From a virus (Duplodnaviria; Heunggongvirae; Uroviricota; Caudoviricetes): DNA of 22,628 nucleotides. The notes under the pieces are model-generated. The model made no database searches. It had not been told where the DNA came from and was given only the letters and a program-made list of their open reading frames with translations. The stretch lies in IMG/VR virus record IMGVR_UViG_2861043448_000001. One strand, 5' to 3'. A program made the position numbers and the translations under genes. Shown here piece after piece: positions 1,659 through 13,262 of the stretch (its first letter is position 1; each line of letters opens with the position of its first letter).

Positions 1659-4130
1659 TTAAGAATCAGCCTGACTCGGGATCAGTTTTTGCCAGATAAC
1701 TGAAACGTATTTTGCCTGGTAACGGGCGTCATCAAGTGCATTATGGCGCTCACCTTCGAATTGAATAGCCGTTCTGGCATCGAAGTCTATGACTTTCCCC
1801 AGCTCAACGATTGTGCGTACATCGCGATCGTTGTAGTAACGCCACGGGCAGGGGATCCCCTGCCGTTCGTATGAACGGCGCAAAATCGTGTTGTCGAAGT
1901 TGGCTCCATTCCCCCAAACCTGAACAAAAAATTCACCGGAGTTTTCGTCGATAAATTCCCGCAATTGTAACAGTGCATCATCTAACGGGATTTCATCGGT
2001 CATAATGGCAGATTGCGCTTCGCGTGATTGCTTAAGCCACCATTTAATGGTGTCCCGATCAATGACTCCGCCAGCAGTTTCCAGATCGATAGTCTTACTA
2101 AATTCCGGTCCCATATCTCCGGTTTGCGGATCGAAAAATATTGCACCTATTGAGGTGATCGGGGCATCAGGATTTTTTCCCATGGTTTCAAGGTCGATCA
2201 TTAGATGGTCACACGTCCTGCTGGTGGATGTGATTTCGTGATGACCGTTCACCTTAATTGGGTGATCTGCCGTCTCGCCAGTTTCATTATCGCTATTGTG
2301 ATGCTGATTGCCGCCAGTGTTCTCCTTGTGTGGATGTTCAGCGCCTTCCATTTCCTCCGGATCATCTTCCTGAACTTCAACCTGATACTCTTCATCGAAT
2401 GTTTCTTGGTATGTTGCGTCGCCCATCACCGCGCCACAATCAGGGCAGTTGCCGCCGCCGGTCTGACCGCAGGCGGTGCAGACTTTTTCCACTTCCTGTT
2501 GCGCTACTGGTTCAGGCTGTTTCGTTTCTGGCTCGTTTTGTAACGCATTTGGACTGTTTTGTTCCGCTTTTTGGTAGTTCCGTTCCGATTCATGCTGGTT
2601 CTGGTTCACAGAATCGCGGGTCTGGATCCCCTTAACCCATTTCGGATCATTCGGGTCACTAATCCCTTCAACAAATTCACCACGTGATGCAGCAAGCAAC
2701 TTATCAGCGTCAGGCTGGCTGATATTGGCTGCCTGCATAATTTTGTTTACTTCGTCAGCGGTAACTTTTATCGGCTCTGGTTGTTCTGAATCTTCAGCGG
2801 TATCTACATTTTGCGGTAAGCCCGTGTATGTGCCATTTTTTCGGGCAAAATATTCTTCTTTTGTGATTTCAGTGGCGCCAGCAGCCAGTGCCTTATCCAG
2901 ACCAGAAAGTTTGTTTGCGCGACCGTATTTTTCTCCGTCCTTATCTGCGAAGAGGAAATAGAACGGCCCCTCACGCTCTACAGATGGTTCAGCTTCCGGC
3001 GCGGTTTCATTTTTTGGGATATCAGATACCTCAGTTTCCACTGCATCAGTTTGTGTTTCTGATGACTGGAGAACATCAACAGTGCCCAGGTCTGTTTCTT
3101 CATTCTCAAACACGCCCTTTGTCGTCAGGTATTCGCAGATATATTTGTTCAGTGCTACGGGATCTTTGTGAATGTCGATCGGACGCTCACGGACAAGGCC
3201 AAAAATAGTTTGGCGGTCGTAGCGAAGGGCATCAGGCTGTTTGCGCATTGATGCCGAGATACGCTTCCAGTCTTCGCGGTCGTTGTCGATAACTTCTTTT
3301 TTTGCCCAGCGATGGATGCTGCCGTCAATGTTTCCGGCATCCACATCACCAGGCCAGAGAGCGTAGGCCAGTTCGTCATCCAGTGTTTTCCATGTCTGCT
3401 TGTATTCGCGATGAATGGCAGCAATGACCGGGCTGATTTTTCCTGTTGAATTTTCAGTGTACTGTTGATTGGCTCTGGCGCGTGCGAGATCAACAACAGA
3501 CGTGTATTTTCCGGTTTCCTTGCGTTCACCTTCGCGACGTTTTTTCCAGATGCGCATCTCTGCCTGAATTTCGGGCCATTTAGCACCAGGAATACATTTA
3601 TGCTTAACCCACCCAATGGCGTGCAACTTAAGCTCCGGATACATGGCGTTAACTTCTGGCATTTTCATCAACGCTTCAACGATATGTCCGTCGAATGTTG
3701 CCATGTCTTCCTGCAACAATTCCTGTGCGCTAATAACCATATCAACGGTGATGTTTTCACATGTGTCGAACTTAACCATGACAGCGTTCTGTACTTCAGG
3801 GGCCAGCTTGTCAAAAGTGACGTTCATCGGATCGGATTCAGTCTCAACCGGGACAAAAGAAGCAGACTCCTCATCCCAGCGGTTTTCCTGCATATATTCA
3901 GCATCCCATGAATCGAGGGCAGGGCGGGGTATGCCAGGTTTATCCTCGCAGACAATAAATTTATAAGCGCAGTCCTGAGCAGCCGGATAATGTTCCAGGA
4001 ATTGCCAGTGAAATTTTGCTCGAGCACGGCGTTCGTCGCCAGCTTCAATGGCTGTGGCTACAGCCACAGCGCCTTCTTCCCTTGTTGCCAGTTCGTCAGG
4101 AATAGCGGCGCAAATAAAGACTTTACTCAT
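1659..4130 (-). CDS. Large early protein with C-terminal DEDDh 3'-5' exonuclease domain (often annotated as exodeoxyribonuclease VIII-like in E. coli prophages)
   Basis: 823-codon ORF. The last ~190 aa show MIDLETMG (Exo I), WGNGANFDNTIL (Exo II) and HNALDDARY (Exo III). Upstream are a CTACGQ..CPDCG zinc-ribbon-like pair and a long acidic low-complexity linker. Confidence 0.8.
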   Translation of the reverse strand: MSKVFICAAIPDELATREEGAVAVATAIEAGDERRARAKFHWQFLEHYPAAQDCAYKFIVCEDKPGIPRPALDSWDAEYMQENRWDEESASFVPVETESDPMNVTFDKLAPEVQNAVMVKFDTCENITVDMVISAQELLQEDMATFDGHIVEALMKMPEVNAMYPELKLHAIGWVKHKCIPGAKWPEIQAEMRIWKKRREGERKETGKYTSVVDLARARANQQYTENSTGKISPVIAAIHREYKQTWKTLDDELAYALWPGDVDAGNIDGSIHRWAKKEVIDNDREDWKRISASMRKQPDALRYDRQTIFGLVRERPIDIHKDPVALNKYICEYLTTKGVFENEETDLGTVDVLQSSETQTDAVETEVSDIPKNETAPEAEPSVEREGPFYFLFADKDGEKYGRANKLSGLDKALAAGATEITKEEYFARKNGTYTGLPQNVDTAEDSEQPEPIKVTADEVNKIMQAANISQPDADKLLAASRGEFVEGISDPNDPKWVKGIQTRDSVNQNQHESERNYQKAEQNSPNALQNEPETKQPEPVAQQEVEKVCTACGQTGGGNCPDCGAVMGDATYQETFDEEYQVEVQEDDPEEMEGAEHPHKENTGGNQHHNSDNETGETADHPIKVNGHHEITSTSRTCDHLMIDLETMGKNPDAPITSIGAIFFDPQTGDMGPEFSKTIDLETAGGVIDRDTIKWWLKQSREAQSAIMTDEIPLDDALLQLREFIDENSGEFFVQVWGNGANFDNTILRRSYERQGIPCPWRYYNDRDVRTIVELGKVIDFDARTAIQFEGERHNALDDARYQAKYVSVIWQKLIPSQADS

Positions 4131-4743: not shown

Positions 4744-4926
4744 ATGATCGCCGGGTTAAATAAAGAATATGGCGATGTGGTGGAATCCGGACTGCTTTTT
4801 GCAGATCCTGCCGTTGTAGATCGTGAAACTGACGAACTTATAGAAAAAGCAATTGCTTTCAAGCTTGCGTATCGACAGCAATACCAACAAAAAGCTGGAT
4901 GGAATTATGAGTCTTCTTTTTGCTGA
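4744..4926 (+). CDS. Hypothetical small protein or remnant upstream of the replication gene
   Basis: The ATG at 4744 lies inside the 73-codon track ORF, which itself starts at TTG 4705. The ORF overlaps the replication-gene start by 20 nt. No recognisable motif and no clear SD. Confidence 0.25.
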   Translation: MIAGLNKEYGDVVESGLLFADPAVVDRETDELIEKAIAFKLAYRQQYQQKAGWNYESSFC

Positions 4927-5872
4927 ACGCCCACTGGTTATAAACACGCAGCTGGCAATGAAAATTGGCTTAAACGAAGCCATTGTTTTGCAACAACTGC
5001 ACTACTGGTTGAGAGATACCAACTCCGGCATGGAATGTGATGGTGTTCGCTGGATTTATAACACAACGGAACAATGGCTGGAACAGTTCCCATTCTGGTC
5101 AGAGTCAACGTTAAAGCGCGCGTTTGCAAGTCTGAAAACGCTGGGGCTTTTGCGTTGTGAAAAGCTCAATAAATCAAAGCGCGATATGACCAATTTCTAC
5201 ACGATCAACTACGGGAGCGAGCTTTTAGATGGTGGCAAATTGAGCGAATCCATCGGTTTAAAATGCGCCGCTCCATCAGGTCAAAATGACACGATGGAAG
5301 AGGTCAAAATGAAACGCTCCATTGGTTCAAAACGACTCAATGTCATCGGGTCAAAATGGCCTGATGATCTTACAGAGAATACAACAGAGATTACTACAGA
5401 GAATAAAAAGACTTCTCGTCCGGAAGCTTCGCAACCGGACCCGCAGACGGTTGAACAGGATTTTTTAACCCGACACCCTGACGCGGTTGTGTTCAGTGCG
5501 AAAAAACGCCAGTGGGGCAGCCAGGAAGATTTGGCGTGTGCGCAGTGGATCTGGGGGCGAATCGTGAGTCTTTACGAGCAGGCCGCCAGCGATGATGGCG
5601 AGATTTCGCGACCGAAAGAACCCAACTGGACCGCATGGGCCAACGACGTGCGCACAATGCGGATGCTGGATGGCAGAACTCACAGACAAATTTGTGAAAT
5701 GTTTGGTCGGGTGCAGCGGGATCCATTCTGGGTAAAAAATATCATGAGTCCGTCAAAGCTTCGCGAAAAATGGGATGAACTGGTTATCCGCCTGGGGCGT
5801 TCGTCTGTACAGCGTTGTGTGAATCATATTTCTGAGCCGGATACCGAAATTCCGCCGGGCTTCAGGGGGTAA
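4907..5872 (+). CDS. Phage replication initiation/replisome-organiser-like protein
   Basis: ATG 4907 is preceded by ggatgg; the track start at 4853 is a TTG. The N-terminal region resembles a winged helix (LNEAIVLQQLHYWL...STLKRAFASLKTLGLL). The C-terminus reads FWVKNIMSPSKLREKWDEL, which I recall from phage replication proteins. The gene sits first in the rightward early block. Confidence 0.7.
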   Translation: MSLLFAERPLVINTQLAMKIGLNEAIVLQQLHYWLRDTNSGMECDGVRWIYNTTEQWLEQFPFWSESTLKRAFASLKTLGLLRCEKLNKSKRDMTNFYTINYGSELLDGGKLSESIGLKCAAPSGQNDTMEEVKMKRSIGSKRLNVIGSKWPDDLTENTTEITTENKKTSRPEASQPDPQTVEQDFLTRHPDAVVFSAKKRQWGSQEDLACAQWIWGRIVSLYEQAASDDGEISRPKEPNWTAWANDVRTMRMLDGRTHRQICEMFGRVQRDPFWVKNIMSPSKLREKWDELVIRLGRSSVQRCVNHISEPDTEIPPGFRG

Positions 5873-5912
5873 GTGTTAATTTCTGGTCATGAGGTAATTT
5901 TCAGGAGGGCTT

Positions 5913-6335
5913 GTGGCAAAAGTTTTTACACAAGAAGAGCGGGAAAAAATTAAAGGGCAGGTTGTTGAACTCGTACGCCGGAGTGGGCGTGAGACGTTAC
6001 GGCAACTGGAAGTCAAGACAGGTGCGACAAGATATCTGATGAGCGTTCTCGCAAGAGAGCTGGTTGCCAGCGGCGATGTATACAACTCTGGTTACGGGTT
6101 ATTCCCGTTTGAACAGGCGCGTAAGGACTGGCAAAATGCCCGTAAAAAGCTCTCAAGGGCAAAGCTGAAGGAACCATCTGCGGTTGATCCGGACCTTATC
6201 TGGTCATTACCTGACGGAGAAATACGTCGTTACGACAGGCGTCATAATATGATTTGTACTGAGTGTCGTAAAAGCGAAGTTATGCAGCGCATATTGTCGT
6301 TTTATCAGGGGGATGTCCGGTATTTATTGAAGTGA
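5913..6335 (+). CDS. Hypothetical protein with an N-terminal winged-helix-like segment
   Basis: GTG start at 5913 follows a strong aggaggg SD at 5903-5909. 140 codons. Confidence 0.7.
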   Translation: MAKVFTQEEREKIKGQVVELVRRSGRETLRQLEVKTGATRYLMSVLARELVASGDVYNSGYGLFPFEQARKDWQNARKKLSRAKLKEPSAVDPDLIWSLPDGEIRRYDRRHNMICTECRKSEVMQRILSFYQGDVRYLLK

Positions 6336-6403
6336 CGAGATTAAAGTGCATTAGTTCAGATGCAAATTGACATTTTGTGGCACAGGGTAGAGCTAGCGTG
6401 GTT

Positions 6404-6427
6404 GTCCGCTTTGTGCCAAGAGCGGAC
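6404..6427 (+). repeat. Palindromic repeat, type H2, copy A (gtccgctttgtgccaagagcggac)
   Basis: 7-bp stem gtccgct/agcggac. Near-identical to the copy at 7620-7643. The flank tttgca...ggggg is also shared with that copy. Confidence 0.8.
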
Positions 6428-6464
6428 TTTGCAAAATGGGGGTTATTTCAATCAAAACGTAACG

Positions 6465-7409
6465 TCACAACCAGCCGACGCTCTCTCGCCATTTATAATT
6501 AGTAACTTTATCATTTTCGCTTATTTTTTTAGATATAGAGCGCGGCTCTCTTCCTAGATACTCAGATATTTCTATCGGGGACAAATCAAAATCAACAAGC
6601 ATGACTCTAAGTTTTTCCATTTCCTTTAAAGTCCAAGGCTTGCCATAATTTTCATAAAGAGATACCTTATGCTCCCTGATAGTTCGCTTTCTCTGAGTTT
6701 CACTTTCCCTCTGAAAAATCTCGCTTTTAAATTGTGAACGGAACTCTTTACAGAAGTTGTTATCAGTTTTTTTGTTATATAGATTGCTAAAAATAAGCTG
6801 GGATGCCGGGTCTAAATCAGGTGTGTTAATAATGAAAACTTTGACCTTTTCCATATAGGGATATTCAATTTTACCCAATATGCTTAATTGCTTTATATTA
6901 AAAAAACCTCTCAAATCAAAAGATTTAATGAGCTTTGATTGGATTACACTTTCAATCCTGCTTGCATTTAAATAACAGTACTTTGCCATTGGAAGGGCCC
7001 ATACTACCAGTTGAGGAATATATTTTTCTAATGCAATGCTCTGCCAATCAGTATCAAAGGTTTGGCTTTTTGCTAGCATGTTTTTCGGCAAATCAGAATA
7101 CATTGTGGTAGATGCCCATATCTTATAATCATTCGCCAAGGCTTGATAGTATTTTGTGTGGTTATGAATTTTATAAGCTGACATGAAGCGATAAACGTCT
7201 TCGTCGTGACCAGCGTCGTAAATTGTTCGATTTCCTCTAAGATAACCGTCGTAATGTTCGGTTATCCTTCTACCTACATTACAACTTACCCCAACGTAAA
7301 CCACACGACTGAAAAGTCCTTTATGGACAATAAGATAAACTCCGCTACAGCCAGATTTCCTGGCCTCTGATAGAGAACCTAAAAATCTCCATTCCATAAT
7401 TAAATCCAT
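6465..7409 (-). CDS. GIY-YIG family nuclease with a C-terminal helix-turn-helix-like domain
   Basis: 314-codon ORF. The N-terminus reads GVYLIV-x9-VVYVGVSCNVGRRITEHY (GIY...YVG...R..H pattern), with a later glutamate in SRIESVIQ. The C-terminus reads PWTLKEMEKLRVML..SPIEISEYLGREPRSISKKI, which looks Myb/HTH-like. The gene is AT-rich. Confidence 0.8.
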   Translation of the reverse strand: MDLIMEWRFLGSLSEARKSGCSGVYLIVHKGLFSRVVYVGVSCNVGRRITEHYDGYLRGNRTIYDAGHDEDVYRFMSAYKIHNHTKYYQALANDYKIWASTTMYSDLPKNMLAKSQTFDTDWQSIALEKYIPQLVVWALPMAKYCYLNASRIESVIQSKLIKSFDLRGFFNIKQLSILGKIEYPYMEKVKVFIINTPDLDPASQLIFSNLYNKKTDNNFCKEFRSQFKSEIFQRESETQRKRTIREHKVSLYENYGKPWTLKEMEKLRVMLVDFDLSPIEISEYLGREPRSISKKISENDKVTNYKWRESVGWL

Positions 7410-7577
7410 AATTATTGCTACTGTTTTTGTTTATCATTATTTTCGTGAAACTTCAACAATTTTATCCAAAAGCTAAGGGCAAAGACTTATATAATTATAC
7501 TTGTCATCGTTAGCGATTATATAGAGTAGTGGCGCTGACCTGCTCCCTGGTGATTCACACAGAATGCTGTTAGTAAT

Positions 7578-7601
7578 GTCCGTTCCTCGCTCTCAGCGGA
7601 C
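7578..7601 (+). repeat. Palindromic repeat, type H1, copy B1 (gtccgttcctcgctctcagcggac)
   Basis: Shares the core tccgtYctcgctc..agcggac with the copy at 11791-11814 (20 of 24 positions) and the copy at 9561-9584 (18 of 24). Confidence 0.75.
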
Positions 7602-7619
7602 CTTCAGCTCAGTGATATC

Positions 7620-7643
7620 GTCCGCTCTGTGCAAAGAGCGGAC
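7620..7643 (+). repeat. Palindromic repeat, type H2, copy B2 (gtccgctctgtgcaaagagcggac)
   Basis: Perfect 9-bp stem with a 6-nt loop. Differs from copy A at two positions. Confidence 0.8.
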
Positions 7644-7956
7644 GTTGGTATGCAAGAGCCCTCCAAAAGTTGATGGTTGGTTTGCAGGGGGGCTTAAAGA
7701 AACTGCACTTATCAAGTTGAAGTTCTGTATTCAGCGAAATCGTAGCACTCTGACGATAAGTAACTCCGGTACTCCGCTCTTCGATGAAGAACCAGAGTAA
7801 TCCCCCCGAAAAACCAGCGCATCAAAATTGGATCTTCAGCGGTAGCTTATCGGCTATCGGAAGTACAGGTGTGGATTCGTGGTGAATTGCTTTGATAATA
7901 AACGATTAATACGGAAAAACGCATTAATCATTTATTAGCTTTTAGTAAACCACAAT

Positions 7957-9306
7957 TTATTCCGTTTTACATATCATAGTAGTCGATTGGAGAATATAGT
8001 TTCTGGGAATGTACTCTTCAAAGTGTTCGTCCTTTTTAAATACATGAACTACATTTGGGAATAATTGATAGTCAACAGGGTGTATAGCGTTTGGATTATG
8101 GTACATGTACATGGCTGTACACCATGGTTCTTGATAGTTAGGGTCACTTACATCGGCTGAAAATGGATGTGGGGCTGCATCCTGATCAGTTTTAACACCA
8201 CTGACGTACACTTTGAATCCACTCGCCTCTACACCTGCAAGAATTCCCATCCGGTTAAACTTAGGTATGGTTGCTTGAGTAGTGAGTAAAACGGCAGAAA
8301 CATAATTATTTTGTTCTGAGCCAAAAAAGTTCGACTTGATACTTCTATTTTCATCTGTATGTCTTTCAATAGAAATGCCTGACTCAATATCAATCCCGTA
8401 CAAATAGCTATGCAAGGCTTCGCTTGAGAAGGCCATGGACATTCTTTTTGAATAATCCTGCATTGCTATGACAAATGGTTTGTTCTTTGTATGGTTGAGT
8501 TCCCAGTAATGAACTTTCTCTGGCTCAGGGCAATGCCGGACTTTTTTTAATAAACTTCTTGCAAACTTAAAAGGCATGACATTTAGAACATGTTTTCTTA
8601 ATTCATCCATCTGTTCATCGTTAATGACTTTTCTTTCAAGAGGGGCTTCTGCTTCAGCAATGCTTACAGCCTCTACAGCAATTTCCACTCCAAATTTAGA
8701 TAGCAGAAAATCTGGTTGATTGTATTCTCTATTCATTTCAAAGTCGAGTTCATAAAATACAGCGTTCAAATATAATTCAAATAACCTTGAATTAAATGCA
8801 TCACTTTGAAAATCCCTTATAAATATTCCATCAGGATCTTTGAACCAGTATGCAAGTTCCTCAAGAACAATATATGCAGGGAAATGAAGAGGGTCTTCGA
8901 GGAGCATTTTTATATAAACATTCCTTTTTTTCGCTGGGACCTTACTCAAGAATAATGAAAAAGGTTTGGTTGATTCATCGCCTTGCATGAATGTACCATT
9001 TTGGTGCTGCGCCAGCATCTTTGGTATGTCATCGTTCAAATTATTAAGCAAGACATCCATTGAATCAAATGAAGCCAAGACGTTTATTGCTCTGAATTTT
9101 TTATCTAAATCCCGACCTAAGACTATTGCGTTAAAATCTTTATCAATATTGCATATGATTATTGTGGATAACAATGTTATCCCATTCCCCTCATATTTAA
9201 ACCAGCGTATCTCCTCAGAAAATGTCTTAAGGTAAGGTGAGCGACCGTAAAAATAAATATCAAATTGTTCTTTGCTGATCTCACTGAAGTGTAATCCTGC
9301 GTTCAT
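7957..9306 (-). CDS. Orphan 449-aa protein; a possible degenerate PD-(D/E)xK-like core; function unknown
   Basis: Long AT-rich ORF with aagga 8 nt upstream of its ATG. The segment FELYLNAVF...NQPDFLLSKFGVEIAVEAVS resembles a helix-E / PD / ExE arrangement but lacks a clear lysine. I recognise no other motif. Confidence 0.75.
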   Translation of the reverse strand: MNAGLHFSEISKEQFDIYFYGRSPYLKTFSEEIRWFKYEGNGITLLSTIIICNIDKDFNAIVLGRDLDKKFRAINVLASFDSMDVLLNNLNDDIPKMLAQHQNGTFMQGDESTKPFSLFLSKVPAKKRNVYIKMLLEDPLHFPAYIVLEELAYWFKDPDGIFIRDFQSDAFNSRLFELYLNAVFYELDFEMNREYNQPDFLLSKFGVEIAVEAVSIAEAEAPLERKVINDEQMDELRKHVLNVMPFKFARSLLKKVRHCPEPEKVHYWELNHTKNKPFVIAMQDYSKRMSMAFSSEALHSYLYGIDIESGISIERHTDENRSIKSNFFGSEQNNYVSAVLLTTQATIPKFNRMGILAGVEASGFKVYVSGVKTDQDAAPHPFSADVSDPNYQEPWCTAMYMYHNPNAIHPVDYQLFPNVVHVFKKDEHFEEYIPRNYILQSTTMICKTE

Positions 9307-9428
9307 ACCAATTCCTTTTCAATGAATAATTGGCCTTTAGGAGTGATTCCCTTTGTCTTTAATTCAGTTCTAACTAGTTCTTTAATCCAATAGCCTAAGC
9401 TCATCATGCAGTTGGATCATAAGACAAC

Positions 9429-9457
9429 GCCCTATAGTGCTCGTGATACTATAGGGC
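9429..9457. repeat. Perfect 10-bp inverted repeat with a 9-nt spacer (gccctatagt-N9-actatagggc)
   Basis: Read directly from the sequence. It lies between the divergent 449-aa gene and the recombinase gene. No T-run follows on either strand. Confidence 0.7.
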
Positions 9458-9560
9458 ATCTGACCACACTGTTAACTGGAGTAACGACTATGGCAGGAAT
9501 ACAGCATAACCAAACTCACCCCAAACTTACATAGCGCTTTCTGGCCGTGAGCATAACAAG

Positions 9561-9584
9561 GTCCACTCCTCGCTCATAAGGGAC
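9561..9584 (+). repeat. Palindromic repeat, type H1, degenerate copy D (gtccactcctcgctcataagggac)
   Basis: Keeps the termini gtcc...ggac and the core tcctcgctc. The palindrome is weakened to 4 bp. Confidence 0.6.
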
Positions 9585-9587
9585 AAC

Positions 9588-9626
9588 CATACTCAAATCT
9601 CCCACATTGCAGGAGATTTGAGTATG
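9588..9626 (+). promoter_or_regulatory. Perfect 15-bp inverted repeat (catactcaaatctcc-N9-ggagatttgagtatg) enclosing the recombinase SD and ATG
   Basis: The right arm contains GGAG (9612-9615) and the ATG at 9624-9626. It could be an RBS-sequestering hairpin in read-through transcripts, or a lox/FRT-style core site. Confidence 0.65.
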
Positions 9627-10226
9627 AACACGTCACCGTGGAACAAAGACCGTATCATAGGCCAAAAAAGACCACTTCAGATATCTCATATCTGGGGTAT
9701 CCGAATCCGACTTGAACTGGAAGGTAAAACTCGCGATTTAGCTCTGTTCAACATGGCCCTGGATAGTAAGCTTCGAGGCTGTGATCTGGTCAAACTCAAA
9801 GTATCTGATGTTGCATATGGTGGCTCTGTTTCAAGCAGAGCAACGGTGTTGCAACAGAAAACCGGTAGCCCTGTTCAATTTGAGATAACCAAAGGGACAA
9901 GAGAAGCTGTTGCTGCATTGATACAGCTTAGCAATTTGCACAGTAAAGACTTCTTGTTTCGGTCTAGGGTCGGAACTAACCAGCACATTTCAACCCGGCA
10001 ATACAACCGAATCTTTCATGGGGGGGTAGAAAAGCTTGGTCTCGAAGATTCGCTTTACAGCACACATTCCATGAGAAGAACAAAACCTTACCTGATCTAC
10101 AAGAAAACCAAGAATCTCCGGGTGATCCAACTTCTGTTGGGTCATAAGAAACTGGAAAGCACAGTCCGTTATCTGGGCATTGAAGTCGATGATGCGTTAG
10201 AGATTTCTGAATCGATTGAAGTCTAA
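9624..10226 (+). CDS. Mini tyrosine recombinase (catalytic domain only, ~200 aa)
   Basis: Catalytic signature occurs in order: DSKLRGCDL (R), LQQKTG (K), HSMRRT (HxxR), LLGHKK (H), VRYLG (Y). The ATG at 9624 sits 8 nt after aggag. The track start at 9618 is a TTG. Confidence 0.85.
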   Translation: MNTSPWNKDRIIGQKRPLQISHIWGIRIRLELEGKTRDLALFNMALDSKLRGCDLVKLKVSDVAYGGSVSSRATVLQQKTGSPVQFEITKGTREAVAALIQLSNLHSKDFLFRSRVGTNQHISTRQYNRIFHGGVEKLGLEDSLYSTHSMRRTKPYLIYKKTKNLRVIQLLLGHKKLESTVRYLGIEVDDALEISESIEV

Positions 10227-10232
10227 GGTTGT

Positions 10233-10254
10233 CAGGGCTGCAACAGCAGCCCTG
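10233..10254 (+). terminator. GC-rich hairpin after the recombinase gene (cagggctgc-aaca-gcagccctg); no T-run
   Basis: 9-bp perfect stem beginning 7 nt after the stop codon. The lack of a U-tract makes intrinsic termination uncertain. Confidence 0.3.
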
Positions 10255-10585
10255 TGCCATAAGCGGAAGTATTTAACAACTATCAGTGTTGTTCAACAGA
10301 TAAAGGGGCACTTGATTTTTTCTGTTCTCAGGAAATGATAAAAGCGCGTCGGTTCAAGCCTGCTTAACGGGAGTTTGTTAATCCTGTTGCCGTGACGTTT
10401 TGACACCATTATGATGGGGAGACACTTAATGTATGAAGGTTCCGCCACTTATACCTGTCCAACAACTGCCTCGGATGTTTCTTTGTATGAATAAGTGGTA
10501 ATGAGTAGTGAATCGCTAACAGTCACCCGAACAATCGGTGCCTGCAATTAATTCTATATTCTAAACGAGGGGGAGATTATTACAC

Positions 10586-11566
10586 ATGAAATTTAAGGAC
10601 AAGAACCTTAAGGCTCTCGCGGAATGTATCATAGGAGATAATAAGGCATTTCTGTATCGTTCAAGCAGTCACATCACTGAATTTTTCCAGGACTGCGGCA
10701 TGGATGTTACTCATGACGGATCCACTCGGTGGAAATGGACGGCCCAGAGGCTTGAAGAACTTCTTTATGAGCCACAGTCAAAGCCACATACTTTGCCGGA
10801 AAGGTTTGTTCATGTGCTCAGAACTTTAATGTTAAAAGAAGATGCAATGGATGACGATCCAGGAAGATTAAAGGCGCTTGAAGAACTGAACAAGCCTTTG
10901 ATGCGGGAAGGCTATGAGGCATTCTATGGTGACGATCGCCTTTTGTATATACGCCATACCGATACCAAAACGGTTTCAGTCAGTAATAACCCTCATCGGC
11001 CCTTAACGCCTCACGAAGTAGAATGCAGAAGGTTACTGACCGCGTTTCTTGATACCTGCTCAGAAGATGAGTTAATAGAAGATATTCTCCTTCCTTTATT
11101 CCGGCAACTTGGTTTTCACCGGATAACAGCAGTGGGACATAAAGATAAAGCGCTGGAATACGGGAAAGACATCTGGATGAAGTTCACACTGCCAACTCAG
11201 CATGTTCTTTATTTCGGCATTCAGGCAAAAAAAGGTAAGTTGGATGCGTCCGGTGCCAGCAAATCTACGAATTCAAACGTGGCAGAAATCTTCAACCAGG
11301 TACTGATGATGCTTGGCCATGAAATATTTGACCCAGAAACAAATAGAAAGGTGCTGGTAGATCATGCCTTTATCGTTGCTGGCGGAGAAATTACTAAACA
11401 GGCGAGGAACTGGCTGGGCGGGAAACTTGATGCCAGCAAAAGAAGCCAGATAATATTTATGGACCGGGAAGACATTCTTAATTTATATACTGTAAGTAAT
11501 GTACCTCTGCCAACAGGTGCTCTCATCTCTGATGATGCCGTTAAGAACGATGATATTCCTTTCTAA
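10586..11566 (+). CDS. Two-domain protein: unknown N-terminal domain plus C-terminal Mrr-like restriction-endonuclease-fold (D...QxK) domain
   Basis: 326-codon ORF with a gagggggag SD. The C-terminal half reads ELIEDILLPLFRQLGFHRITAVGH..EYGKDIWMKF..LYFGIQAKKGK...AFIVAGGEITKQA. This matches the Mrr_cat layout of helix, G-x-D-I, then (Q/E)xK. Confidence 0.75.
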   Translation: MKFKDKNLKALAECIIGDNKAFLYRSSSHITEFFQDCGMDVTHDGSTRWKWTAQRLEELLYEPQSKPHTLPERFVHVLRTLMLKEDAMDDDPGRLKALEELNKPLMREGYEAFYGDDRLLYIRHTDTKTVSVSNNPHRPLTPHEVECRRLLTAFLDTCSEDELIEDILLPLFRQLGFHRITAVGHKDKALEYGKDIWMKFTLPTQHVLYFGIQAKKGKLDASGASKSTNSNVAEIFNQVLMMLGHEIFDPETNRKVLVDHAFIVAGGEITKQARNWLGGKLDASKRSQIIFMDREDILNLYTVSNVPLPTGALISDDAVKNDDIPF

Positions 11567-11790
11567 TCAGAAGTACGTCTTTTTCTGAAAGAATACGTGA
11601 TAGGTAGCCACACCACACCTTTAGTGACCCCTTAATCTGGTAATATAACAGCCCGTATGAATGTCCGCGGCATCGCGGGCTGAAATTTATTAAAAATACT
11701 TATTCATCAAGCTGGAGTAGTTTGCCGAGTAACTGTAAACGCCCAACTTAACCGGACCATTCACTTTTAGATTGCTACCAGCAAACCAAC

Positions 11791-11814
11791 TTCCGTTTCT
11801 CGCTCAAAGCGGAC
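11791..11814 (+). repeat. Palindromic repeat, type H1, copy C (ttccgtttctcgctcaaagcggac)
   Basis: 20 of 24 positions match copy B1. Same orientation. It lies at the right edge of the island. Confidence 0.7.
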
Positions 11815-11993
11815 TAGAAGGTTAGCTTGCGTCGGACTTGGCGTATTTAAAGAAGTGCTGGTGGTAACTGGTTGTTGTGTTCCATTTCTACAAAACAAAA
11901 TCACAGAAACTATACCCAATAGTTATATTGAATCAATGATGAGACAGCCTCATATTTATCAGAACTGGTGTACGTCCAATACAGGAGGTTGTC

Positions 11994-12083
11994 GTGCTGG
12001 TTCTCAAATATGCGCTAGCTATTGCGGCTGTAATGGCAATTTATTGTCTTGCTATTGTTCTTACGGATCGCCTTTCTGATTGA
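11994..12083 (+). CDS. 29-codon hydrophobic peptide ORF (MLVLKYALAIAAVMAIYCLAIVLTDRLSD); candidate small membrane or toxin-like peptide
   Basis: GTG start 5 nt after a strong aggagg at 11983-11988. Predicted single TM helix with a charged tail. Too short for the six-frame track. It overlaps the Cys-rich 74-aa track ORF in another frame. Confidence 0.4.
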   Translation: MLVLKYALAIAAVMAIYCLAIVLTDRLSD

Positions 12084-12090
12084 TTTTATA

Positions 12091-12119
12091 TTGGCGAGGT
12101 GACGGGAGTTAAGTAGAAT
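12091..12119 (+). promoter_or_regulatory. Candidate hok mRNA promoter (TTGGCG-17 nt-TAGAAT)
   Basis: Hexamers at 12091-12096 and 12114-12119. The predicted start lies just before the 5' element gcgggtgcttgagg, which is complementary to the mRNA 3' end. Confidence 0.45.
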
Positions 12120-12171
12120 TGCTGCGGGTGCTTGAGGCTATCTGCCTCAGGCATGAACACCAAAGGCAGAT

Positions 12172-12246
12172 AGAGAAAAGCCCCAGTTAACATTACGCGT
12201 CCTGCAAGACGTTTAACATTAATCTGAGGCTCAATCTATGAACGGC
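12172..12246 (-). ncRNA. sok: Sok-like antisense RNA of the hok locus (ends approximate)
   Basis: The minus strand has TTGCCT-17 nt-TAACCT (plus-strand coordinates 12281-12276 and 12258-12253). The predicted transcript covers the mok start region and folds into a long imperfect hairpin ending ctggggcuuuucucu. This matches the R1 hok/sok layout. Confidence 0.5.
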
Positions 12247-12450
12247 AAATCTAGGTTAGCCTCTTACGTGCCGAAAGGCAAGGAGAAGCAGGCTATGAAG
12301 CAGCAAAAGGCGATGTTAATCGCCCTGATCGTCATCTGTTTAACCGTCATAATGACGGCACTGGTAACGAGGAAAGACCTCTGCGAGGTACGAATCCGAA
12401 CCGGCCAGACGGAGGTCGCTGTCTTCACAGCTTACGAACCTGAGGAGTAA
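12238..12450 (+). CDS. mok: Mok-like reading frame (in-frame N-terminal extension of Hok)
   Basis: 70-codon ORF containing the Hok sequence, as in the chromosomal mokC/hokC arrangement. Confidence 0.6.
   Translation: MNGKSRLASYVPKGKEKQAMKQQKAMLIALIVICLTVIMTALVTRKDLCEVRIRTGQTEVAVFTAYEPEE
12295..12450 (+). CDS. hokD: Hok/Gef family type I toxin (closest to my recollection of HokD/RelF)
   Basis: MKQQKAMLIALIVICLTVIMTALVTRKDLCEVRIRTGQTEVAVFTAYEPEE is the classic Hok signature. An aggag SD lies at 12281-12285. Confidence 0.9.
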   Translation: MKQQKAMLIALIVICLTVIMTALVTRKDLCEVRIRTGQTEVAVFTAYEPEE

Positions 12451-12518
12451 GAGACCAGGCGGGGGAGAATCCCTCGCCACCTCTGATGTGTCAGGCATCC
12501 TCAACGCACCCGCACTTA

Positions 12519-12547
12519 ACCCGCTTCGGCGGGTTTTTGTTTTTATT
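12519..12547 (+). terminator. Rho-independent terminator of the hok mRNA
   Basis: Stem acccgc-ttcg-gcgggt followed by tttttgttttt. Confidence 0.8.
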
Positions 12548-12665
12548 TTCAACGCGTTTGAAGTTCTGGACGGTGCCGGAATAGAATCAAAAATACTTAA
12601 GTAGCGCGCAGGGATAAGAGGGATGGTCCCTTAAAGGGGAGAGCTAATTATCCGGAAGGATTCTG

Positions 12666-12917
12666 ATGATGAACATCGAAGAACTGCGTAAAATTTTTTG
12701 TGAAGATGGCCTCTATGCTGTGTGCGTTGAAAATGGAAATCTTGTTAGTCATTACCGCATTATGTGTTTGCGAAAGAATGGGGCTGCGTTAATTAATTTT
12801 GTGGATGGTCGAGTGACAGACGGATTTATCTTGCGCGAAGGTGAGTTTGTCACTTCATTACAGGCACTGAAAGAGATTGGAATAAAAGCAGGCTTTTCAG
12901 CTTTTGCAGAAGAATAA
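12666..12917 (+). CDS. rem: Rem-like small protein (Qin prophage rem homologue by position and size)
   Basis: 83-codon ORF immediately downstream of hokD, as in Qin. A ggaagga SD precedes it. Identity is assigned from recollection. Confidence 0.6.
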   Translation: MMNIEELRKIFCEDGLYAVCVENGNLVSHYRIMCLRKNGAALINFVDGRVTDGFILREGEFVTSLQALKEIGIKAGFSAFAEE

Positions 12918-12983
12918 ACTCATCTACAATCTTGCGCGGGGCTGAACTCCCGCTGAGTAACACCGTGCCACCGGAGAAAACCG

Positions 12984-13262
12984 ATGGCACGCAACGTAAA
13001 ATATTACAATTCTGATAATTCGCCCGTTCTTGCCTGCACGCACGAGCGGTATTCTCACGCATTCAAGTCTGAATGGTTCCAGCACCCTCCATGCACTGAA
13101 GAGCAGGCTGAATGGATAATTCAGTGTTACCGCAGGCGCGGATACGAGGTTAAGAAAGCTCTTAGTCTCGACTACCGTCACTGGATAATCTCAGTCAGAT
13201 TGCCTTACTCCGAACGCCCACCGCGTCCGTCCCGTACATTCCAGCAACGCATCTGGAGGTAA
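12984..13262 (+). CDS. Hypothetical nin-region protein
   Basis: 92-codon ORF with a ggagaaaacc SD. Its stop lies 1 nt before the GTG of the next gene. Confidence 0.6.
   Translation: MARNVKYYNSDNSPVLACTHERYSHAFKSEWFQHPPCTEEQAEWIIQCYRRRGYEVKKALSLDYRHWIISVRLPYSERPPRPSRTFQQRIWR

Follow-up and report, generated by a model that had tools for sequence, protein, structure and literature searches.

Locus and arrangement of the sites

The 22,628-nt stretch of DNA analysed here, called the window in the following (IMG/VR virus record IMGVR_UViG_2861043448_000001), is an Escherichia coli lambdoid prophage that carries an island of three cargo genes and one small recombinase gene, separated by copies of a 24-nt palindromic repeat. 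Along the window the order is the integrase gene int (20–1315), an O-like replication gene, a DUF977 gene, the island and then sok, hokD and rem. The palindromes are of two types, H2 with the centre TGTGCC and H1 with the centre TCGCTC; their arms are called outer on the backbone side and inner on the cargo side (Table 1). A model that had read the letters and the open reading frames without database searches (the sequence-only reading) described five copies in the same orientation as boundaries of the gene units. All five were confirmed: the H2 pattern was found at H2a and H2b and the H1 pattern at H1a and H1c, with 0 matches expected in shuffles for either pattern. A fuzzy scan of both strands of the 22.6-kb window, allowing up to 6 mismatches, found no further copies; the sites are thus confined to the island. 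A sixth copy, which the sequence-only reading had overlooked, was recognised only via comparison with other loci, not by the fuzzy scan: it is a degenerate H2-type site (AGCAGCCCTGTGCCATAAGCGGAA) with a weak outer arm and with centre and inner arm conserved, and it starts 18 nt past the recombinase stop codon (H2c).

The orientation was wrong in that description. H1 matches H2 at 17–18 of the 24 positions as reverse complement and at 14–16 directly, and the motifs that flank the sites on the cargo side are inverted, too; H1 is an inverted variant of H2. Three cargo units are present, each ordered H2, cargo, H1: H2a, a gene for a protein of 314 amino acids (aa) and H1a form unit 1, H2b, the gene for the defence protein PD-T7-1 and H1b form unit 2, and H2c, a 326-aa gene and H1c form unit 3. 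Units 1 and 2 are joined by an 18-nt linker, units 2 and 3 by the recombinase gene (rec) in linker position. Since H2c lies between rec and the 326-aa gene, the two genes do not belong to one unit, as had been assumed.

Table 1. Features of the island and of its flanks in the window. Parts of a site are separated by slashes in the order arm / centre / arm.
Feature	Position	Strand	Sequence	Remarks
DUF977 gene	5913..6335	+		Left backbone flank of hotspot, after O-like gene 4853-5872; Pfam PF06163, E 1e-27
H2a	6404..6427		GTCCGCTT (outer arm, backbone side) / TGTGCCAA / GAGCGGAC (inner arm, cargo side)	
Cargo 1, 314-aa protein	6465..7409	-		N-terminal GIY-YIG-like motif (GVYLI..VVYVG..R..EH) in translation
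Subterminal motif	7536..7547		TGACCTGCTCCC	Window's copy of the reverse complement of the GGGGAGCAGGTCA motif, near H1a
H1a	7578..7601		GTCCGTTC / CTCGCTCT / CAGCGGAC	
Inter-cassette linker, 18 nt	7602..7619		cttcagctcagtgatatc	
H2b	7620..7643		GTCCGCTC / TGTGCAAA / GAGCGGAC	Self-complementary at 22/24 positions
Cargo 2, PD-T7-1 anti-phage defence gene, 449 aa	7957..9306	-		PADLOC PD-T7-1, E 7e-157
H1b, degenerate	9561..9584		GTCCACTC / CTCGCTCA / TAAGGGAC	
Hairpin, perfect 15 bp	9588..9626	+	CATACTCAAATCTCC-N9-GGAGATTTGAGTATG	Covers rec Shine-Dalgarno sequence and ATG; DNA fold z = -6.0
rec, 200-aa catalytic-domain-only tyrosine recombinase	9624..10226	+		Between H1b and H2c; PF00589, E 2e-17
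Hairpin downstream of rec	10233..10254		CAGGGCTGC-AACA-GCAGCCCTG	Overlaps H2c outer arm; z = -3.8
H2c, degenerate	10245..10268		AGCAGCCC / TGTGCCAT / AAGCGGAA	
Cargo 3, 326-aa protein	10586..11566	+		PD-(D/E)xK / Mrr-like motif (GKDIW...IQAKK) in translation
H1c	11791..11814		TTCCGTTT / CTCGCTCA / AAGCGGAC	Followed by backbone flank tagaaggttagctt
sok antisense RNA of hokD/mok/sok	12126..12184	+		Right hotspot flank; Rfam RF01794, 57.4 bits, E 4e-11

The sites as cargo boundaries in other genomes

The PD-T7-1 segment (7620–9580) begins with the first base of H2b and ends inside H1b. The P2-like Yersinia phage vB_YpM_46 has it with 98.9% identity in the Z/fun hotspot, flanked by the tail-fibre genes on one side and by the sheath gene FI on the other; the Morganella phage IME1369_01 has it with 96% identity, flanked by a tail-fibre gene and by umuD. 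Phage mEp460_ev081 has the same lambdoid flanks as the window, with an identical H2a outer arm and left flank followed by another cargo, and contains PD-T7-1 as its only cargo; it differs from the window by exactly the segment from H2a to H2b and the segment from H1b to H1c. Its H1 is a hybrid, with the left part from the H1b type of the window and the right part from the H1c type.

A scan of IMG/VR with the right half of H2 yielded 67 loci, and one with the P2 backbone flank alone, which is unbiased for the site, yielded 120. In the P2-like loci GTCCGCTCTGTGCC invariably comes after the flank ..aatctgaca; next to it are an inner arm specific to the cargo and the start of the cargo, of which there are more than 50 unrelated ones. 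The cargos close with an inner arm of their own, after which TCGCTCAAAGCAGAC and tgtcagatt are found. The 24-mers of the window are identical to the P2 Z/fun sites or differ from them at 1–2 positions. Of the 7 alleles of the lambdoid DUF977–hokD hotspot that were sampled in E. coli, 5 are bounded by H2 (flank gcgtggtt) and H1 (flank tagaaggttagctt), with RelA/SpoT, AbiH, NUDIX plus HAD, SMEK plus methyltransferase and one unnamed cargo between them. The flank ..gcgtggtt also stands before H2 in other lambdoid prophages with other cargos, just as the outer arm and flank of H1c also close other cargos in such prophages. Different cargos between the same repeats, for which the sequence-only reading had advised a search, were thus met many times in both the P2-like and the lambdoid hotspots.

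Altogether, the sites were met around over 100 cargos and in over 10 backbones. PD-T7-1 is found in 5 backbones, and of the cargos found in several backbones six stand behind H2 (2–4 backbones each) and nine before H1. The conditional entropy of the outer arm given the backbone is 0.19 bits for H2 and 0.00 for H1, as compared with 1.27 and 0.78 bits given the cargo, whereas the inner arm of H2 tracks the cargo (0.12 bits). The outer arm is thus in every case that of the backbone, the inner arm belongs to the cargo, and the junction must therefore lie within the central ~8 nt. In multi-cargo islands a junction consisting of H1, 18 or 19 nt and H2 recurs. For example, the linker of the window (cttcagctcagtgatatc) is found again in other phages (loci L122, L136 and L166) and in an island of E. 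coli CFT073 with differing cargos on both sides, from which it follows that H1 and H2 must both be exchange points. The orientation of the cargo relative to H2 and H1 is constant in all backbones; the cargo genes lie on either strand, with sites on their 5′ as well as on their 3′ side.

It should be mentioned that in most P2-like loci (e.g., L001 of phage vB_YpM_46, 3990–4000 and 5966–5976) the 9 nt directly outside H2 and H1, aatctgaca and tgtcagatt, are inverted complements; without the cargo, the two halves of the backbone would thus join to a palindrome with arms of 17 bp. This joined palindrome may go back to an ancestral single site, or it may serve as terminator of the tail-fibre operon. 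The CFT073 island (chromosome 4110397–4129055; locus L255) is an array of H2/H1-bounded units, rec included; one 5.7-kb unit is an iron-uptake operon with a TonB-dependent siderophore receptor and an ABC transporter, and the left flank of the island (aatctaatctgaca) is a remnant of a P2-like backbone.

The centres, i.e., the loops, are the most conserved part of the palindromes, with two centre types, one per side. Conservation runs asymmetrically into the cargo, with nTT after H2 and AAn before H1, bases that lie outside the search pattern. The sequence-only reading had noticed that the flanks of the H2 copies are related (tttgcaaaatggggg and tttgcagggggg); indeed, they are part of a wider subterminal motif, ..GGGGAGCAGGTCA, which 15 of 102 cargo types have beside H2, 25–45 nt inside the cargo, and of which the reverse complement stands beside H1 in 11 of 66 cargo ends; the motif almost never occurs in the other orientation. 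Since these cargo-side motifs are inverted, each cargo has imperfect terminal inverted repeats.

The small tyrosine recombinase

The product of rec consists of the catalytic domain only. Its HxxR (HSMR), H (LLGH) and Y (RY) align with XerD, and the R and K of the catalytic set are seen in the translation (KLRGCDL, QQKTG), so that rec, as judged from its translation, has an intact R-K-HxxR-H/W-Y motif set. With the NCBIfam models for Xer proteins, integron integrases and invertases the scores were below the cut-offs in all cases: the two integron-integrase models gave 17.5 and 17.2 bits, with cut-offs of 435 and 265, and the tyrosine-type DNA invertase model gave a weak match (E 2e-6). Homologues with 77–95% identity are spread over the Gammaproteobacteria and are present in Escherichia, Proteus, Providencia, Pantoea, Erwinia, Sodalis, Idiomarina, Pseudoalteromonas and Cycloclasticus; among the E. 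coli genomes with rec are those of CFT073 and Nissle 1917.

The association of rec with the sites is close. Next to homologues with at least 80% identity an H2 centre was found within 60 nt after the stop codon in 18 of 18 distinct loci and an H1 centre upstream in 16 of 18, at a background of 1.2% for both centres. Typically, the H1 centre lies ~57 nt upstream of rec, the H2 centre lies ~18 nt after the stop codon, and the outer arm of the upstream H1 is always of the type found in H1b. The arrangement H1, rec, H2 was seen in all contexts that were examined, namely in E. coli phages, in Proteus prophages (where rec adjoins TIR, SIR2 and SMC-like genes), in a marine island resembling integrative and conjugative elements (ICE-like; rec lies between ars and cop operons), on a plasmid and in the CFT073 island. 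It is the reverse of the cargo order H2, cargo, H1, and rec therefore occupies the linker or platform position. After homologues with ~60% identity the sites have other centres (CGGCCA in L198, L199, L202 and L220; TGACCC in L200), and the centre CGGCCA is found elsewhere in those same loci, too. The type of centre thus co-varies with the rec lineage.

The hairpin over the start of rec (9588–9626) is conserved in 14 homologous loci, where 92.7% of the cells are paired and 4 pairs show compensatory changes, as compared with 25–43% paired in slid controls. This suggests tight translational control of rec; the hairpin may lock translation or serve as a palindromic operator. The hairpin downstream of rec is also conserved with rec homologues. 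Many phage loci in IMG/VR (L221–L243 and others) contain rec fragments only (for example residues 27–104, 164–202 or 1–94), and in locus L013 the start of rec is cut after ~20 nt by the right half of an H2 followed by a new cargo, which suggests frequent decay or truncation of rec at the sites.

Copy number and the lack of empty sites

A common genome-wide intergenic element unrelated to cassette boundaries was the case that the sequence-only reading had set against its own view. In E. coli this is not what was found: H2 is present in 2380 of 5426 complete genomes (44%) and lacking in the other 56%, the median being 1 place per genome and the highest number 6. The empty sites which that reading had proposed to look for did not turn up: BLAST with joined flanks against the 5426 E. 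coli genomes found none. The shortest allele in these genomes is a 225-nt remnant of an AbiH cassette, still flanked by H2 and H1. The absence of empty sites fits exchange rather than excision.

Outside E. coli the palindrome GTCCGCT-N10-AGCGGAC was met several times per 5–8 kb on contigs of Xanthobacteraceae, Pseudolabrys and other alphaproteobacterial metagenome-assembled genomes (MAGs) (L269, L271, L286, L291, L341, L342, L350 and L362; also L280, L300 and L312), among genes for periplasmic binding proteins, MgtC and ABC substrate-binding proteins. In the scan of genome contigs ~1000 chance matches are expected by our own estimate for the 14 fixed bases in 596 Gb, and matches were kept only if the unsearched left arm also fitted. 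The MAG copies often form doublets 21–22 nt apart and have the centres GTGCCA, GGGTCA/TGACCC or GGGGCA; no rec homologue was found within 8 kb of the alpha- and betaproteobacterial copies. They could be elements resembling repetitive extragenic palindromes (REP) or their paired form (REPIN), or large sedentary arrays.

Proposed mechanism and its alternatives

We consider it on balance probable that H1 and H2 are heterospecific site-specific recombination sites allowing cassettes to be exchanged, with rec as the recombinase. According to this proposal H2 and H1 would be core-type sites composed of an arm, a 6–8-bp centre and an arm, with like arms and unlike centres, and inverted around the cargo. 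Rec would exchange strands within the centres, probably in trans on islands without a rec gene. Crossovers between two H2 and between two H1 on two replicons would swap the cargo without the locus ever being empty and, since the non-identical centres would block crossovers between H2 and H1, the cargo would be replaceable but not simply lost. The lack of empty sites in E. coli, the survey result on the never-empty P2 hotspots (PMC13586616) and the fixed cargo orientation agree with such a swap. Where an array has like sites in direct orientation, recombination between them would set free or take up a circle that consists of cargo, H1, linker (or rec) and H2, and arrays like the three-cassette island could be built in this way. 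The circle route would thus explain both the differences between the window and mEp460_ev081 and the travelling linker. We infer the binding and cleavage of the sites by rec, the function of the centres as overlap regions, heterospecificity, action in trans and the direction and frequency of the reactions from sequence comparison. Integration of a circle by one crossover was considered and rejected because the H2 and H1 centres differ, and an inversion switch was rejected because the cargo orientation is fixed relative to the sites. More tentatively, and with somewhat less than even confidence, we propose that the sites make up a "two-site" cassette system, integron-like but mechanistically distinct, which swaps and stacks cassettes among unrelated mobile elements across Proteobacteria. 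The cargos would be defence genes, iron-uptake genes and transporters, and the elements P2-like and lambdoid phages, pathogenicity islands, plasmids and ICE-like islands.

Several points weigh against exchange of the cargos by rec. The support for it is comparative throughout, and breakpoints in the centre would equally come from any recombination that needs a conserved stretch. Rec is present in 896 of the 5426 E. coli genomes, fewer than have H2; most islands with the sites are therefore without rec, and action in trans must be assumed. The sites adjacent to rec have poor outer arms, so that a canonical two-monomer site is not evident there. Two of the seven sampled lambdoid alleles (with AAA ATPases and with NACHT) have no recognisable sites. 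A subset of the cargos has terminal inverted repeats of ~70 bp and thus a transposon-like look, and the same palindrome is dense between ordinary-looking genes in MAGs of Xanthobacteraceae, Pseudolabrys and Nitrosomonadaceae, which would fit a REP-like element bound by another protein.

If rec were a mere passenger, the palindromes could be inherited boundary hairpins (insulators or terminators), with homologous or short-homology recombination (RecA, Red, RecET-like) within and around them as the means by which cargos are swapped, similar to the mosaic boundaries that the sequence-only reading had named as one of its three possibilities. We hold this to be rather unlikely, although it may apply to exchange among related phages. 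In P2-like phages the flanking backbone haplotype does tend to accompany the cargo, as with exchange via long flanking homology; the window has a candidate 823-aa open reading frame (1659–4130) where lambdoid phages carry recombination exonucleases; the many islands without rec would be expected; and surveys of the hotspots have considered homologous or illegitimate recombination possible (PMC9122126, PMC13586616). However, backbones as unrelated as those of P2-like phages, lambdoid phages, the Morganella phage, a plasmid and a chromosomal island share only ~24 bp, with the junction always in the centre, and homology-driven exchange does not require a loop more conserved than the stem or two side-specific centre types. 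Nor do the sites have the T-tract of a terminator: a terminator scan of both strands reports none of the six, and intrinsic terminators were rejected as their identity. Finally, rec is fixed between an H1 and an H2 centre, in the reverse of the cargo order, which is unlike a passenger cassette. The other two possibilities of the sequence-only reading fared differently. AttC-like or att sites for the small recombinase are the best supported of the three; membership of the integrons fails. A role as stabilisers of RNA 3′ ends has some weak support, and a view in which the hairpins act on RNA only, be it in this way or as processing sites or attenuators of cargo transcripts, appears to us very improbable. 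It is true that the H2 copies fold as stable hairpins, that on the transcribed strand of cargo 1 H2a is found 37 nt past the stop codon and that inner-arm variants are in many cases transitions, with which G-U pairs would be kept. But the H1 copies fold poorly (z = −0.7 for H1c), the sites lie at the 5′ and 3′ sides of cargo genes in either orientation, the loop sequence is shared across unrelated cargos, and an Rfam search of the window matched only sok, outside the island, and nothing at the sites. An RNA role would also leave unexplained why backbone and cargo join within the sites and why a recombinase is associated with them.

The cassettes could also be non-autonomous transposon-like or REPIN-like elements, whose terminal inverted repeats (H site plus GGGGAGCAGGTCA) are recognised by a transposase encoded elsewhere (of the HUH/RAYT type or other) and which are inserted into palindromic targets. 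The imperfect terminal inverted repeats of up to ~70 bp in a subset of cargos, the likeness of H1-spacer-H2 to REP doublets, the dense intergenic copies, doublets included, in some Alphaproteobacteria with no rec within 8 kb, and a cargo-side end that starts with TG, like the ends of DDE transposons, can be read in this way. There is, however, no target-site duplication around the units, and the outer arm belongs to the backbone, so that the mobile boundary lies inside rather than outside the palindrome. Moreover, the would-be target, i.e., the outer arms, has the same sequence as the inner arms, which is a signature of site-specific recombination rather than of transposition. The copy number in E. 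coli is low, and transposable elements are nearly absent from P2 hotspots according to a survey of 2026 (PMC13586616). No transposase was seen associated with the sites, with no search aimed at RAYT made; the associated gene is a PF00589 recombinase. We therefore regard transposition as distinctly improbable. Ends of a DDE transposon starting at TG were rejected as such, because TGTGCC and the outer arm remain with the backbone and no target duplication is present.

Relation to known systems

Repeats of this kind are known in outline from P2-like coliphages. Site-specific recombination at inverted repeats flanking fun was proposed in 2004 (Nilsson, Karlsson & Haggard-Ljungquist, Mol Biol Evol 21:1, as cited in PMC8987985). 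By their sequence, the repeats of the window are members of this P2 Z/fun repeat family: the G-FI (Z/fun) locus of P2-like phages has variable cargo between conserved inverted repeats of the same family, and in the Yersinia phage PD-T7-1, both inner arms included, is shared with the window at 98.9%. What differs is that the sites of the window lie in a lambdoid prophage between replication genes and hokD, in a three-cassette array with a candidate recombinase between sites. Hotspot surveys of 2022 and 2026 called the exchange mechanism unknown and did not mention the repeats (PMC9122126, PMC13586616), and the latter found the P2 hotspots never empty and swapped without pseudogenisation (PMC13586616). 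Our literature search found nothing on the use of the sites in the lambdoid DUF977–hokD hotspot, in a pathogenicity island (with its 5.7-kb iron-uptake cassette) or on plasmids, nor on the array architecture, the two putatively heterospecific centres or a dedicated small recombinase; a search with the site sequences as text gave no relevant match.

Integrons resemble the island in having arrays of single-function cassettes, imperfect palindromic sites and a link to a tyrosine recombinase. Their attC sites (59-base elements) consist of two simple sites with inverted repeats and a variable centre, a layout that H1-linker-H2 also has. Nevertheless, an integron was rejected because rec fails the integron-integrase models and the sites are without the GTTRRRY core. 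IntI has ~320 aa with an integron-specific insertion, as compared with the 200 aa of rec. In attC the cores are RYYYAAC/GTTRRRY and the boundary lies in R′, whereas here only nTT/AAn is conserved and the boundaries lie in the centres of two sites; an integron has one exchange point, whereas here apparently both H1 and H2 serve. Integron cassettes are mostly promoterless and in one orientation, whereas the cargos here lie on both strands, PD-T7-1 has its own promoter-like site, and there is no attI/Pc platform. Defence genes are a cargo in sedentary integrons, too (10.1101/2024.07.02.601686).

Engineered recombinase-mediated cassette exchange with heterospecific lox or FRT sites uses equal arms and different spacers, which makes the cargo swappable and not excisable and which matches the H2/H1 layout and the lack of empty hotspots; there Cre or Flp is employed by design, whereas the heterospecificity of H1 and H2 is suggested by their centres. 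The pdif (XerC/XerD-site) modules of Acinetobacter plasmids, reportedly described by Blackwell and Hall in 2017, are likewise accessory modules between inversely oriented arm-centre-arm sites, found in many plasmid backbones and considered mobile on comparative data. In the island, neighbouring modules are linked by H1-linker-H2 instead of having one site in common, and a dedicated small recombinase takes the place of the host XerCD. The arms GTCCGCTC/GAGCGGAC are presumably unrelated to dif (28 bp, XerC and XerD arms, 6-bp centre).

The shufflon sites (sfx) of R64 have a 7-bp core, GTGCCAA, which is identical to the H2 centre (e.g., window 6413–6419), and are asymmetric like the H sites, in that the centre and only one of the arms are well conserved (PMC4176322). 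Their 12-bp right arm (TCCGGTACGTGG) differs, by eye, from GAGCGGAC, with a resemblance (CGG(T)ACGT(T)GG) in some cargos only. The shufflon recombinase Rci has ~384 aa and only inverts DNA, whereas rec has 200 aa and matched no Rci model. There is no evidence of inversion at the H sites because the cargo always lies the same way round between H2 and H1; the identity of the H2 and sfx cores may be coincidence or distant kinship. The small invertases FimB and FimE have in common with rec that they are catalytic-domain-only recombinases of ~200 aa and act on a segment between inverted repeats. However, since the H2 and H1 centres differ, inversion between them is not expected, and the same cargo was never seen in both orientations relative to its sites.

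REP elements, their mosaic clusters (BIME) and REPINs are high-copy and genome-wide, whereas H2 is low-copy in E. coli; in some of the Alphaproteobacteria the palindrome may have such a distribution. In DDE transposons the repeats move with the element and a target duplication arises, whereas here the outer half of the palindrome remains with the backbone and no duplication is seen. The reverse complement of H1 (TGAGCGAGGA) may resemble the consensus of the enterobacterial repetitive intergenic consensus (ERIC) elements, a likeness that was not used.

Cargo genes and neighbouring features

The labels "GIY-YIG" and "Mrr-like", which the sequence-only reading had given to cargos 1 and 3, hold as motifs in the translations and lack a significant match in Pfam, NCBIfam or PDB. 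For cargo 1, searches of Pfam, NCBIfam, PDB and PHROGs gave no significant match, with a weak PADLOC match to PDC-S14 (E 0.0075) and a PHROG match (E 6e-4); the gene also stands behind H2 in two other backbones. For cargo 3, searches of Pfam, NCBIfam, PADLOC, PHROGs and PDB were without significant match, and we call it a putative Mrr-like protein after the motif in its translation.

Cargo 2 encodes PD-T7-1, known as a defence protein (Vassallo 2022). Upstream of the gene and inside the cargo is a promoter-like site (9475–9448, minus strand), the −10 element of which is overlapped by a palindrome with 9-bp arms, CCCTATAGT-N9-ACTATAGGG (9430–9456). This palindrome is kept in the Yersinia and Morganella phage copies and may be an operator. 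A non-coding stretch of 313 nt (7644–7956), which separates H2b from the stop codon of PD-T7-1, moves with the cargo and is 98.9% identical in the P2-like phage; it contains an AT-rich 18-bp inverted repeat (7896–7937) directly after the stop codon.

To the right of the island the sok score lies just below the Rfam gathering score of 59. The hok/sok-type toxin-antitoxin locus spans 12048–12184 and continues to ~12450; hokD and rem are found in the RefSeq annotation of identical genomes (e.g., of ST410 type). E. coli GN4751 (NZ_CM177078.1) has a copy of window 5000–13000 that is 100% identical apart from an IS1 insertion (two pieces, 8778 bp versus 8001).

Implications

Phage and satellite hotspots are a main reservoir of bacterial anti-phage systems. 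If cargos are indeed exchanged by rec at H2 and H1, this would supply the missing mechanism for the fast turnover of phage defence hotspots without empty intermediates. The H2–H1 signature delimits cargo units and thereby helps to find new defence genes. In the case of exchange by rec, a natural cassette-exchange system would be added to integrons and pdif modules, and it would possibly provide an orthogonal recombination tool.

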